Shown here one piece after another: positions 1,491-8,271 of a stretch of 9,665 nucleotides of DNA (its first letter is position 1; every line of letters starts with the position of its first letter). Below the pieces are notes generated by a model. The model did not search any database. It saw nothing but the letters and a program-made list of their open reading frames with translations, and was not told where the DNA came from. The DNA is taken from positions 1 to 9,665 of IMG/VR virus record IMGVR_UViG_2681813316_000027, one strand, 5' to 3'. The translations under genes were made by a program, and so were the position numbers. The DNA comes from a virus. Its lineage: Duplodnaviria; Heunggongvirae; Uroviricota; Caudoviricetes.

Positions 1491-2189
1491 TTACGGCACT
1501 GCGTTAATCAGATTACAAATACCTCTTTTGGCAGGGTCTGAATTCAACTTCTGGAAATTGGCGTTCAACATAGCAGTGTGTAAGTGATTCTCAACCTCAA
1601 AGAATAGGTCGATTTTGCCCTCTTTGGCTGCATGTTTCTTCCAAACATTCACTTGGTCATCAGCAATACGACTGGCGCAAGTGAACAAGAACGAACTGCC
1701 TCTAGGAATGGATGTCGTGCTGTAATACTCACCATCTACTTCTACATATTTAGCTCGGAATGACTCTAAGGTTAGCTTATTGCCGTTCTTGACCGACTTA
1801 ACTTCTGCCTTACTTGTTTCTTCCTGCTCTTCAGAATGTTTCTGCGTCGACGTGGGTATCTCATTGGCCGCTGTTACGCTGACTGAACTCCCCAAACCTT
1901 TGAGGCCATTAATTTGGATAAGATAAGCCAGCTCCAGAGCCTTATTATCAGTGAGTTTTCCACGCATATTTACCCACTGACGTTGAACCATTTTTATGGT
2001 GTCTGCGTTCTCTGGGTTTTCTTTGAGGGCACTAGAATAGGCAGAGCTAAGCTGTTCGTCTAATTTTGACAGACGTTCGTTATCGCAGATTTTATGTTCG
2101 ATTGCTGTCGAAGCCTTTTGGCAGTCAAAGCTGGCTGCAAATGCACCCGGCGATGCCACTAACAATGATGCCAGTAGGATATTTTTCAT
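1491..2189 (-). CDS. Secreted protein with N-terminal DUF1311/LprI-like domain (232 aa) and an unrecognised C-terminal domain
   Basis: ORF track 1491..2216(-). I prefer the internal ATG at 2189..2187 because GGAGTGAAT sits directly upstream, whereas the ATG at 2216 has no ribosome-binding site. N-terminus MKNILLASLLVASPGAFAAS is a typical Sec signal peptide. The mature N-terminus FDCQKASTAIEHKICDNERLSKLDEQLSSAYSSAL...QRQWVNMR fits the C..A.T..E..IC...L..LD..L...Y ... Q..W..R pattern of the LprI/DUF1311 family. Flanked by about 130 and 200 bp of AT-rich non-coding DNA. Confidence 0.6.
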   Translation of the reverse strand: MKNILLASLLVASPGAFAASFDCQKASTAIEHKICDNERLSKLDEQLSSAYSSALKENPENADTIKMVQRQWVNMRGKLTDNKALELAYLIQINGLKGLGSSVSVTAANEIPTSTQKHSEEQEETSKAEVKSVKNGNKLTLESFRAKYVEVDGEYYSTTSIPRGSSFLFTCASRIADDQVNVWKKHAAKEGKIDLFFEVENHLHTAMLNANFQKLNSDPAKRGICNLINAVP

Positions 2190-2319
2190 ATTCACTCCAT
2201 AAATACAAAAGCGCATTACTATAGCACTTAACCGATCGCTTATCTCGCCCGTTCGTCATTCTTATCTAACCAGAACATGCGGCTGCCACAGCACATGTCG
2301 AGGATCGCTGCATGTCCAG

Positions 2320-2807: not shown

Positions 2808-3314
2808 TTAAATTGCGTGAATAGCGTGACGAGGGAAGGGGAGAGTTACTGGTGCAAAGGGTATATCGTCGTCAAAATCCATCGGAGGTTCGTTGTGTTG
2901 TGCTGGTGATGATTGCTGCTGTGGCTTCTGTGATTGCCTGCTGGCTGCTTGTTGTTTGCTGTCGCCAATGCCGCCAAGCATTTGCATCACGCCATTAATT
3001 CCGACATGAACCTCGGTTGTGTAACGGTCTTGCCCTGACTGGTCTTTCCACTTTCTGGTTCTCAGCATTCCCTCGAAATAAATCTGATCACCTTTTTTCA
3101 CATACTGCCCCACGACCTCAGCCAGTTTCCCGGATACAGCAACACGATGCCATTCAGTCAATTCCTTTTGCTCGCCAGTATTTTTATCTCGCCATTGTTC
3201 TGACGTGGCTATTGTCAGGTTAGCGAACGCTGTTCCTGATGGTGAGTATCGAACTTCCGGGTCTTGTCCTACCCGACCAAGGATAATCACCTTATTTATC
3301 CCGCGAGAACTCAT
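2808..3314 (-). CDS. ssb: Single-stranded DNA-binding protein (168 aa)
   Basis: ORF track 2808..3323(-). N-terminus [29 protein letters not shown] matches the conserved SSB OB-fold start. Gln/Pro/Gly-rich linker and acidic C-terminal tail DFDDDIPF. Preferred start is the ATG at 3314..3312 after GGTGGAG; the GTG at 3323 is an upstream alternative. Confidence 0.9.
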
Positions 3315-3778
3315 TTGCTCCACCTCTTGCCAGTTTTTATGTTGCTTATAATTGATTGAGATACACCCATGTCTTTTGCTATCTTGTACTGACTCTCTTT
3401 TTCAGAGAGTCTTTTCCTAATTTCTATAACCTGCCACTCTGTTAATTTTGCACCATGATGAGCATGACCTTTCTTGGCTCCACGATGCCTTCCTTTTGCT
3501 ATCTTGTCGTCCATGTTTTCTTGCGCGCTACCTAAAAAGAGATGTTCAGGATTAACGCAGCATGGGTTATCGCATTTGTGGCAAACCATCTTCCCAGATG
3601 GAATGGGGGAGTGATAAAGCTCAAAAGCAACCCGATGAGAAAGCATTGTTACGCCAAATGCTACAAATTTTGTGTATCCTCCTTTGTTTTTTGAATAGGT
3701 AGACTCCCAGCAACCTGTTGTTTCATTAACTTTGTAGCTGGACTCGAATCTTTTAATAATTCCGTCCAAGTGAGACAT
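3311..3778 (-). CDS. HNH endonuclease (155 aa), homing-endonuclease-like
   Basis: ORF track 3311..3778(-). HNH core ...[58 protein letters not shown]... with a C-terminal basic helix-turn-helix-like tail. Its stop overlaps the ssb start (ATGA) and its start directly abuts the stop of the annealing-protein gene. Confidence 0.85.
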
Positions 3779-4585: not shown

Positions 4586-4744
4586 TTATGGCGATACCAG
4601 AGAGCTTTCTGCGTGTACATGCGTCTCTGTAACTTGCTCTCCTTCACTGTGGTTGCAAGTGACATGAATATCTCCTTCGTTACCGATTAATTCTTTCATC
4701 TGACGAATGAATTCTTCGTCTGACCAGTTATCTGTAAAACTCAT
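4586..4744 (-). CDS. Hypothetical small acidic protein (52 aa), MSFTDNWSDEEFIRQMKELIGNEGDIHVTCNHSEGEQVTETHVHAESSLVSP; in the position of lambda kil
   Basis: ORF track 4586..4774(-). Start moved to the ATG at 4744..4742, which overlaps the stop of the upstream cIII-like gene (ATGA), giving translational coupling. No sequence similarity to Kil recognised; the comparison is positional only. Confidence 0.5.
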   Translation of the reverse strand: MSFTDNWSDEEFIRQMKELIGNEGDIHVTCNHSEGEQVTETHVHAESSLVSP

Positions 4745-4911
4745 GGGCGGCCTTGTTGTTTCAAAATATCCCAAAGCTTTTCGAGCAAACTTTTCATTCT
4801 TGGTTGTTTAAAGTCTGCTCCGGTTAGAATGTTTTTTCGTGAATGCTGTACCGATAAAATCGGGTTGAAAGGGCGAACCGATGCCGCCCCTGCAATAGCG
4901 AACTGTTGCAT
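4741..4911 (-). CDS. CIII-like protein (56 aa), MQQFAIAGAASVRPFNPILSVQHSRKNILTGADFKQPRMKSLLEKLWDILKQQGRP; possible FtsH/HflB inhibitor
   Basis: ORF track 4741..5016(-). Start placed at the ATG at 4911..4909 because of the strong upstream site GAAGGAGCATCCT; the upstream part of the tracked ORF overlaps a terminator. MQ.AIAG at the N-terminus, a C-terminal amphipathic SLLEKLWDILKQQGRP and the size resemble lambda CIII (MQYAIAGWP...LRDGWKRLIDILNQPGVP) as I recall it. Confidence 0.55.
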   Translation of the reverse strand: MQQFAIAGAASVRPFNPILSVQHSRKNILTGADFKQPRMKSLLEKLWDILKQQGRP

Positions 4912-4977
4912 AGGATGCTCCTTCTGTTTGATTGCATAACGAAAACGCCTCGAGTGAAGCGTTATTGGTATGCATAT

Positions 4978-5001
4978 AAAAAAGCCCTCACACTGGAGGG
5001 C
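4978..5001 (-). terminator. Intrinsic terminator (minus strand) upstream of the cIII-like gene
   Basis: Plus strand AAAAAA(4978-4983) GCCCTC(4984-4989)-ACACTG-GAGGGC(4996-5001). On the minus strand this is a 6-bp GC stem followed directly by U6-7. Confidence 0.6.
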
Positions 5002-5063
5002 AAAGAAGATTTCCAATAATCAGAACAAGTCGGCTCCTGTTTAGTTACGAGCGACATTGCTCC

Positions 5064-5419: not shown

Positions 5420-5456
5420 ATTCACCTCTGTTGTTTATGCCAAAAATAAAGGCCGA

Positions 5457-6080
5457 CTATGCGACCTCGGAAGGAAGTCCAATCATCTTATTCAAATCTT
5501 CTACCCGTAAAGCAGGAAGTGCTGTACTTGCTTTATCTGCTTCTTTTGGTAGCAATTCTTTGCTTTCAGGCCAAACTTCAATAAGTCGCTTAACTGTTGT
5601 GACTGAGTTCAAAGCAGCCCATACATTTGATTCGATATCCTTTTTCTTGGCTTCAAGTTTTTGTTGCAATGCGCAGATTTCATCAAACCTTTTTGTTATT
5701 TCGTGTTCTGCGTCAAACATGCATTTATCTTTTTCTGGGGTGGGGAGCAATATATCTTCACCGTTGCCGTCTTTTCCGTATGAATGCCAGCCAACCCTTC
5801 TTCCAGATACAGTCAGATAAATCGAAGTAGAACGAACATCGCATGAGTAAAATGAACATCCCATCTTCTCAAGTTCTTCACTTATAGCTGCTAACTTGGA
5901 TGATAACCGATCCACTTCCTCAGTTTTCTTTTTACCGCCAAACGCAATAACTCTGGCGTCAAGTGCAAGCTGGTTCTTTAACTTTGTTACTTCTTCAAGT
6001 TCAGTGAAAACCCCAGACTTAATTAAAGCGTTACGAGCGATTTCCTCTTTCATTCTCGTAGTTAAGCGGATTGATGACAT
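5457..6080 (-). CDS. Hypothetical protein (207 aa), first gene after N; predicted helix-rich, no recognised family
   Basis: ORF track 5457..6140(-). Start moved to the ATG at 6080..6078 (MSSIRLTTRMKEEIARN...), which is preceded by GAGAGGAATTAAT 11 nt after the N stop. The upstream extension has no ribosome-binding site. Confidence 0.75.
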   Translation of the reverse strand: MSSIRLTTRMKEEIARNALIKSGVFTELEEVTKLKNQLALDARVIAFGGKKKTEEVDRLSSKLAAISEELEKMGCSFYSCDVRSTSIYLTVSGRRVGWHSYGKDGNGEDILLPTPEKDKCMFDAEHEITKRFDEICALQQKLEAKKKDIESNVWAALNSVTTVKRLIEVWPESKELLPKEADKASTALPALRVEDLNKMIGLPSEVA

Positions 6081-6091
6081 ATTAATTCCTC

Positions 6092-6418
6092 TCAAATAAG
6101 TGGTTTGCTGCCTAATTTCATTTTCTGGCGACCAACACAAGTCACCCCCATTTCACTGCGTGGCTTGCTGTACCATGTGCGCTGATTCTTGCGCTCAATA
6201 CGCTGCAGGTTGCTTTCAATCTGTTCGTGGTATTCAGCCAGCACTGTAAGGTCTATCGGATTTAGTGCGCTTTCTACTCGTGATTTCGGTTTGCGATTCA
6301 GCGAGAGAATAGGGCGGTTAACTGGTTTTGCGCTTACCCCAACCAACAGTGGATTTGCTGCTTTCCATTGAGCCTGTTTCTCTGCGCGACGTTCGCGGCG
6401 GCGTGTTTGTGCATCCAT
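6092..6418 (-). CDS. N: Antitermination protein N (108 aa), lambda type
   Basis: ORF track 6092..6418(-). MDAQTRRRERRAEKQAQWKAANPLLVGVSAKPVNRPILSLNRKPKSRVESALNPIDLTVLAEYH... matches my recollection of lambda N, including the arginine-rich boxB-binding motif; the C-terminal roughly 20 residues diverge. Ribosome-binding site CAGGAGAATCCAG then ATG. Confidence 0.9.
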   Translation of the reverse strand: MDAQTRRRERRAEKQAQWKAANPLLVGVSAKPVNRPILSLNRKPKSRVESALNPIDLTVLAEYHEQIESNLQRIERKNQRTWYSKPRSEMGVTCVGRQKMKLGSKPLI

Positions 6419-6686: not shown

Positions 6687-6717
6687 GCCCTTCTTCAGGG
6701 CTTAATTTTTAAGAGCC
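6687..6717 (-). promoter_or_regulatory. nutL: boxA (GGCTCTTAA) and boxB hairpin (GCCCTGAAGAAGGGC)
   Basis: Minus-strand reading GGCTCTTAAAAATTAAGCCCTGAAGAAGGGC. boxB at plus 6687-6701 and boxA at plus 6709-6717. Near-identical to lambda nutL as I recall it (CGCTCTTAA...GCCCTGAAGAAGGGC), with one change in boxA. Confidence 0.85.
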
Positions 6718-6878: not shown

Positions 6879-8231
<1,353 letters not shown>

Positions 8232-8239
8232 GACATTCC

Positions 8240-8271
8240 CGCTCTTACACATCCCAGCCCTGAAAAAGGGC
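8240..8271 (+). promoter_or_regulatory. nutR: boxA CGCTCTTAC and boxB GCCCTGAAAAAGGGC; the rho-dependent tR1 region follows up to cII
   Basis: boxA at 8240-8248 and boxB hairpin at 8257-8271. Near-identical to lambda nutR as I recall it. Confidence 0.85.

Follow-up and report, generated by a model that had tools for sequence, protein, structure and literature searches.

The stretch of DNA analysed here (9,665 nucleotides; hereafter the window) represents the early-left and immunity region of an E. coli lambdoid prophage. On its minus strand the gene for a cI-like repressor is followed by a 158-aa ORF, the nutL site, the antiterminator gene N, the ORF that is the subject of this report and small ORFs, after which come the genes for a Rad52-like recombinase, an HNH endonuclease, SSB, Abc2, an LprI-like protein, a putative DpdA-like transglycosylase and a TorI-type excisionase (Table 1). 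The boxA-like sequence and boxB hairpin upstream of N resemble the nut sites of lambda and make up nutL; they place the ORF of interest, a member of the Nmad5 family (see below), in the N-antiterminated pL operon. A boxA of nutR is present downstream of cro, and the nut sites of the window are of the lambda type.

Table 1. Coordinates of the features discussed in the text (window positions).
Feature	Coordinates	Strand	Basis
nutR boxA, CGCTCTTA	8240..8247	+	
cI-like repressor gene	7280..7912	-	
158-aa ORF	6879..7355	-	
nutL: boxA-like GGCTCTTAA (6716-6708) and boxB hairpin GCCCTGAAGAAGGGC (6701-6687)	6687..6716	-	sequence; boxB also in terminator scan
Antiterminator N gene, directly upstream of the Nmad5 gene and probably on the same transcript	6092..6418	-	ORF list; RefSeq "antitermination protein N" on near-identical prophage gene
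Cassette-specific ribosome-binding region, GAGGAATTAAT	6081..6091	-	sequence; other cassettes have different Shine-Dalgarno sequences at the N junction
Nmad5-family CDS, 207 aa	5457..6080	-	translation, Pfam PF18757, phrog_1965, pN/pS
Whole mobile cassette: Shine-Dalgarno sequence, ORF, 3' hairpin and ~20 nt	5427..6091	-	junction alignments
Terminator-like hairpin over the Nmad5 stop codon, then UUUAUUUUU; weak tL1-like candidate	5449..5468	-	pattern scan, folding, conservation with the cassette
Two tandem terminator-like hairpins (stronger hairpin, 5001-4984)	4944..5001	-	
HNH endonuclease gene	3311..3778	-	
LprI-like protein gene	1491..2216	-	
Candidate DpdA-like transglycosylase gene, 266 aa	484..1284	-	

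Translation of the minus strand yields 207 aa and a stop codon, from an ATG at 6080-6078 to a TAG at 5459-5457. The N ORF terminates with a TGA at 6094-6092, and the 11 nt which separate this stop from the ATG (6091-6081 on the coding strand) contain a strong Shine-Dalgarno sequence (GAGGA) directly after the N stop. A longer version starting from a TTG (227 aa, 5457-6140) and overlapping N is not supported, since the homologues start at MSSIRLT. The pN/pS ratio, calculated over 56 distinct alleles of related prophages, is 0.28, which indicates purifying selection. The ORF is a genuine gene, and in this respect an earlier reading of the DNA, made without database searches (hereafter the sequence-only reading), was right.

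The gap between N and the Nmad5 gene is too short to hold a terminator, and the first terminator-like hairpin is the one that spans the Nmad5 stop codon; therefore, the gene is probably co-transcribed with N, at the start of infection or induction. This is earlier than "delayed-early", the class in which the sequence-only reading had put it, and that designation needs to be corrected. No promoter-like site was found by a pattern scan between nutL and the Nmad5 start. The hairpin folds with -10.5 kcal/mol (z -0.9) in the window and with -13 kcal/mol (z -1.5) in the commoner allele, values that are thermodynamically unremarkable, and it is regarded as a candidate terminator only.

The cassette at the N stop codon

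The boundaries of the unit carrying the Nmad5 gene were taken from lambdoid loci with aligned flanks. Upstream, homology between the phages breaks exactly at the N stop, after TTATTTGA. In the window and its relatives this sequence is followed by GAGGAATTAAT-ATG, and phages with a similar N have GGTGAGAT-ATG, GGTGATAT-ATG or GGTGATGGA-ATG at the same junction instead. The proteins encoded after N by these alternative cassettes (156, 149, 210 and 107 aa) are unrelated, and among phages with similar N the slot at the N stop is filled by no fewer than six unrelated cassettes, all of which bring a Shine-Dalgarno sequence of their own. The alternative cassettes were searched for known anti-defence genes; all of them fell into PHROGs to which no function is assigned, and none matched Pfam. 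At the 3' end the conserved part comprises the hairpin over the stop codon, UUUAUUUUU and ~20 nt; it ends after GGCATAAACAACAGA, beyond which the flanks diverge. As judged from these junction alignments, the Nmad5 gene of lambdoid phages is a self-contained, one-gene optional cassette inserted exactly at the N stop.

The junction itself, TTATTTGA at the N stop (window position 6092), recurs as a fixed mosaic boundary in loci L170, L174, L177, L181, L189, L211 and L058. In L058 the junction sequence is repeated after the Nmad5 cassette and is followed by a second cassette, an instance of stacking.

The N-proximal slot was recognised by the sequence-only reading as the one where lambda carries ral, and to this can be added that the slot is hypervariable. 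The genes for lambda Ral, P22 ral/17, HK022 Nun and lambda SieB share it: each comes first, or among the first, behind N in the pL operon, and like the Nmad5 gene of the window they are optional and mosaic. No sequence relationship accompanies this shared location: a Pfam scan of the window protein at E≤1 revealed, besides Nmad5, coiled-coil noise only, so that Nmad5 is the sole match above noise, and similarity to Ral-type restriction alleviation was not found in it. What is shared is the genomic position alone. Lambda Ral is a protein of 66 aa, compared with the 207 aa of the window protein, and unlike the Ral-type genes the Nmad5 family reaches well beyond lambdoids, into the replication modules of virulent phages.

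Exclusion genes are known to reside around cI and N in lambdoid prophages. Given this location and the hypervariability of the slot, a prophage defence or superinfection-exclusion function deserves mention, in which the protein would be expressed from the lysogen and act against other phages, as do SieB, Nun, RexAB and BstA, whose genes are found in this neighbourhood. The predicted defence domains of a machine-learning study do include a "nucleotide modification associated domain", but which Nmad domain is meant is not specified there (PMC13092281). Exclusion nevertheless appears very improbable to us, because the gene belongs to the repressed pL operon, where it follows N with no promoter-like site from nutL to its start, a PADLOC-DB scan of the window protein (E≤0.01) gave no defence-system match, and virulent phages (such as Yuavirus, Bas95 and 70-kb podoviruses) commonly carry family members too, inside replication clusters.

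The Nmad5 family and the structure of the window protein

The window protein matches the Pfam family PF18757 (Nmad5) with 240.3 bits (gathering cut-off 27; E 2.7e-71), and the alignment is full-length, with residues 4-203 on profile positions 1-206 of 206. It also matches phrog_1965 (function unknown; E 2.6e-83), and identical or near-identical proteins carry the RefSeq name "Nmad5 family putative nucleotide modification protein". All the motifs of the family, namely the N-terminal RLT..R..I..NA..KxG, the GG turn, WPExxELLP and the C-terminal LPAxxVxDLNxxIGLP, are present (R5, N17-A18, K21-G23, G48-G49, W170-P171-E172...P178 and L188...P203). We therefore assign the protein, on the strength of these profile matches, as a full-length, single-domain member of Nmad5, which the sequence-only reading had been unable to place in any family. 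The gene is already catalogued and annotated, and its identity will not surprise a specialist. No match to the window protein was obtained from NCBIfam, and nothing was detected in the window with Rfam. Homology to a structural or metabolic protein, which the sequence-only reading had named as one outcome that would speak against it, was likewise sought and not found.

The family is large. Searched with a profile, a set of 1.84 billion cluster representatives yielded 2324 Nmad5 clusters (at 50% identity); the best 150 of these 2324 representatives are mostly 190-220 aa long, a range into which the window protein fits. PF18757 is the only domain in every one of the 115 relatives with precomputed domains, and no domain fusion was found among these 115 or among the 150 listed relatives. 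Members occur in lambdoid, Yuavirus, Vibrio, Salmonella and other phages; a scan of genome contigs added little (4 loci only). The gene itself (≥90% nucleotide identity) is present in 211 of the 5426 complete E. coli genomes (~4%), and its carriers include mEp235, HK542, HK244, Kapi1 and many Stx1a/Stx2a-converting phages. In the original Nmad description the family name was reportedly based on the association of the genes, by neighbourhood, with those for nucleotide or base modification, and gene neighbourhood is all that the "nucleotide modification" label of this 2324-cluster family goes back to. We found no experimental characterisation of nucleotide or DNA modification by an Nmad5 protein in the searchable literature.

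In order to describe the fold, an AF2 model was built with 22 homologues. The model is confident (mean pLDDT 84.9, pTM 0.71) and begins with three N-terminal helices (residues 8-22, 24-47 and 50-72), to which a beta hairpin (86-100) and a long helix (127-158) are added. Two short helices (163-176) come next, and a disordered linker (183-192) leads to a short C-terminal helix of low confidence. Helix makes up ~55% of the model, and D, E, K and R account for 67 of the 207 residues, in agreement with the "helix-rich and charged" protein of the sequence-only reading. Structure prediction, which that reading had proposed as a check, has thus provided a confident model; comparison of this model with solved structures revealed no relative.

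Conservation was assessed from 43 sequences at 26-58% identity. G48, P178 and N197 are the only invariant residues among them, and R5, I14, A18, G23, R43, G93, T162, L166, W170, P171, E172, E175, L176, L196 and G201 are near-invariant. Conservation peaks in the N-terminal helices (R5, I14, A18, G23, R43 and G48), in the segment T162..L166..W170-P171-E172..E175-L176..P178 and in the C-terminal tail LPAxxVxDLNxxIGLP (L196, N197 and G201). The central Cys/Gly-containing stretch highlighted by the sequence-only reading (GCSFYSC...GKDGNG, residues 74-107) is the variable part of the family, with an insertion of ~90 aa in P0208 and a deletion in P0148, and the emphasis put on it was misplaced. A metal site within this stretch was considered and rejected, since the segment is prone to insertions and deletions and its cysteines are not conserved. 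A catalytic fold or a conserved constellation of catalytic residues was sought in the AF2 model and among the 43 sequences and was not found; the lack of catalytic-looking residues would still be compatible with catalysis.

Recurrent association with DNA replication and recombination genes

The gene neighbourhoods of the family were surveyed in IMG/VR loci and four genome-contig loci that keep the WPE..EL[LI]P motif, sorted at 70% Nmad5 sequence identity into 25 groups. ORFs within 7 kb were clustered; the counts that follow stem from crude ORF calling and BLAST clusters, labelled from one representative each, with the representatives confirmed by Pfam. The recurrent neighbours, usually on the same strand as Nmad5, encode DNA polymerase A (9 of the 25 groups), a DUF2800 PD-(D/E)XK nuclease (7), a DUF3799 exonuclease and a ParB-HTH protein (5 each), an Enc34-type ssDNA-binding protein, an SF2 helicase and SSB (4 each) and an Rv2179c-like 3'-5' exonuclease (3). 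In temperate phages Nmad5 is located ~0.8-4.6 kb downstream of the gene for a cI-like repressor, on the same strand. Nmad5 is recurrently associated with DNA replication and recombination genes.

It could be that Nmad5 is simply a replication or recombination accessory, such as a mediator or loader linking the polymerase, SSB or recombinase of the phage with DNA ends, which would make replication or recombination more efficient with no host target. The recurrent same-strand neighbours (PolA, DUF2800, Enc34-type SSB, DUF3799 exonuclease, helicase and ParB), the position of the window gene upstream of the module of Rad52-like recombinase, SSB and Abc2, and early expression are what such a protein would lead one to expect. 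In lambdoids, however, the presence of Nmad5 is independent of the type of recombination module, and unrelated genes substitute for it at the same junction. Moreover, the homologue of phage SM_S22 is dispensable, its reported toxicity in cloning suggests a host-directed activity (PMC11846954), and the related phage HK578 lacks the gene despite having the same kind of replication module. On balance we regard a pure accessory of this kind as unlikely.

No modification enzyme was found among the recurrent neighbour clusters of the 25 groups. Genes for base modification do occur beside Nmad5 in Yuavirus SN1, and sometimes, as DpdA-like genes, in lambdoids, but they are not recurrent across these diverse groups. 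In SN1, Nmad5 is positioned between the genes for aGPT-Pplase1 and thymidylate synthase/pyrimidine hydroxymethylase, inside a thymidine-hypermodification cassette, a context that fits the family name and a modification role. The protein concerned, SN1_019 of the Sphaerotilus/Pseudomonas Yuavirus SN1/M6, is a PF18757 member detected by a profile of the relatives of the window protein, and the two are alike in being single-domain proteins of ~190-210 aa with the WPE..ELLP and LPA..DLN..IGLP motifs. BLAST finds little similarity between the SN1/M6 and window lineages, most of it in the C-terminal third. They also differ in setting: the SN1/M6 gene lies within a hypermodification cassette beside aGPT-Pplase1, whereas that of the window stands alone after N, with no coupled modification gene.

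The 266-aa protein encoded near the far end of the window matches phrog_887 ("queuine tRNA-ribosyltransferase", E 1.4e-102), with no Pfam or PDB sequence match, and is a candidate DpdA-like DNA transglycosylase. Since there are no preQ0-synthesis genes in the window, the candidate would need host preQ0; phages with dpdA alone are known and can use preQ0 of the host (PMC6884629). Both this gene and the SN1 cassette bear on the reading suggested by the family name, according to which Nmad5 would be an accessory of DNA or nucleotide modification, either a targeting or scaffolding subunit or an unrecognised enzyme, acting with a base-modifying partner; in the window the partner would be the DpdA-like protein, encoded 4.2 kb downstream in the same operon. 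Close copies of the DpdA-like gene (76-100% identity) are present in ~40 IMG/VR loci, most of which can be recognised as lambdoid, and sit towards the xis end of the operon. Nmad5 and the DpdA-like gene are independent of one another in lambdoids: a DpdA-like gene is found within 10 kb in only 4 of the 80 Nmad5 loci, Nmad5 accompanies only 2 of the ~30 DpdA-like loci that reach the N/cI region, and in mEp235 Nmad5 follows N and Nun in an operon devoid of a DpdA-like gene. A coupling between the two was rejected for these reasons. Together with the neighbour clusters devoid of modification genes and the missing catalytic constellation, this makes a modification accessory unlikely.

A Dhillonvirus homologue and the proposed role of Nmad5

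A single paper on an Nmad5 protein was found in the searchable literature (PMC11846954). It reports that Dhillonvirus phages evade the Tmn defence through the substitution K296E in "nmad5" of SM_S22, or the equivalent K216E in SM_A8, and that reversion of these substitutions brings back sensitivity to Tmn (PMC11846954). Deletion of nmad5 from SM_S22 gave a viable mutant and did not relieve Tmn, and the gene could not be cloned, apparently owing to toxicity (PMC11846954). Because the deletion leaves Tmn unrelieved, K296E may be a gain of function. The SM_S22 protein is labelled a "DNA modification enzyme" in that work (PMC11846954), a claim for which the family name is the sole basis.

As the type Dhillonvirus HK578 has no Nmad5 homologue anywhere in its genome, in searches where positive controls score well, mis-annotation of the Dhillonvirus gene was suspected. 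This was rejected: CDS0006 of SM_S22 is a true PF18757 member (E 1.2e-55; hhalign probability 99%, ~23% identity to the profile). K296 aligns with R165 of the window protein, within the T-x-K/R-K/R-L...WPE segment, the most conserved one. Compared with the window protein, CDS0006 (334 aa as annotated) has an N-terminal extension of 80 residues and a longer central insert, and its gene sits among the clustered head genes of a virulent siphovirus, on the strand opposite to theirs, rather than after N. As in lambdoids, the gene is an optional insert, being absent from HK578.

In the SM_S22 genome (locus L214, 5005-6009, minus strand) nmad5 has the appearance of a moron-like insert, oriented against the head-gene cluster around it. 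HK578 (L212/L213) carries a different gene, of 140 aa, at the corresponding place.

Taking these results together, we tentatively favour the view that Nmad5 is a non-enzymatic, dispensable early accessory protein which binds DNA or a factor of DNA metabolism and has a role of the host-takeover or counter-defence type; this is a real possibility, if somewhat short of an even chance. Most likely, the window protein is not a base-modifying enzyme. We read it as a non-enzymatic accessory because neither an enzyme fold nor enzyme residues were recognised, the gene is modular and dispensable, its position is early, and its neighbours belong to replication and recombination. Modularity and dispensability follow from the unrelated cassettes at the same N junction, the lack of the gene in HK578 and the viable SM_S22 deletion. 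A link to DNA metabolism is supported by the PolA, DUF2800, SSB, exonuclease, ParB and helicase neighbours, or by a cI-like gene shortly upstream. The position of the Tmn-escape residue in the most conserved segment also speaks for this view. The Yuavirus Nmad5 inside a thymidine-hypermodification cassette counts against it and fits a role in modification.

In mechanistic terms, the favoured accessory protein would be a helical bundle with a variable beta-hairpin tip. Its conserved end, made up of the N-terminal R-L-T...N-A..K-x-G helices, the G-G turn, T-x-K/R-K/R-L...W-P-E..E-L-L-P and the flexible LPAxxVxDLNxxIGLP tail, would bind DNA or a conserved factor of DNA replication or recombination, and this binding might tune phage DNA metabolism or shield it against host interference. 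That these elements form a "conserved basic end" is predicted from the order of the secondary-structure elements. An anti-restriction or anti-defence role of the window protein can be hypothesised on the same lines; the one experimental pointer towards it is indirect, namely the Tmn-escape substitutions in the SM_S22 homologue, whose deletion leaves Tmn unrelieved (PMC11846954).

More boldly, Nmad5 could represent a widespread, unrecognised class of non-enzymatic phage effectors, whose basic end and LPA..DLN..IGLP tail would dock on a conserved bacterial DNA-metabolism protein or on phage DNA and so decide whether replication-sensing defences such as Tmn fire. We think it improbable that the family as a whole will prove to be of this nature. 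If it did, the cassette behind N in lambdoids would carry an immediate-early gene for counter-defence or host takeover. The lambdoid members behave as a swappable and dispensable early cassette, and our results suggest that the "nucleotide modification" label is too narrow or misleading for them. The Tmn-escape mutation, which falls on the most conserved basic position, offers a testable handle in the form of R165 and the C-terminal tail.

Other features of the window are of some interest in their own right. The position between cI and pL/nutL is that of lambda rexAB and of defence genes of other prophages; in the window it is taken by the 158-aa ORF, the product of which has a signal-peptide-like N-terminus and matches phrog_2651 (unknown function), and the 5' end of which extends into the region of the cI stop. 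Two tandem terminator-like hairpins are found behind the small ORFs that come after the Nmad5 cassette, and the stronger one (GCCCUC...GAGGGC) precedes UUUUUU; no convincing ORF is discernible in ~4741-5016. None of the 86 related loci examined has the HNH endonuclease gene (PF13392, with a C-terminal HTH) that lies between those for the Rad52-like recombinase and SSB, and it looks like a recent homing-endonuclease insertion. Finally, the gene between those for Abc2 and the DpdA-like protein encodes a secreted LprI-like protein of the lysozyme-inhibitor family (PF07007), an unusual early-operon cargo for pL.
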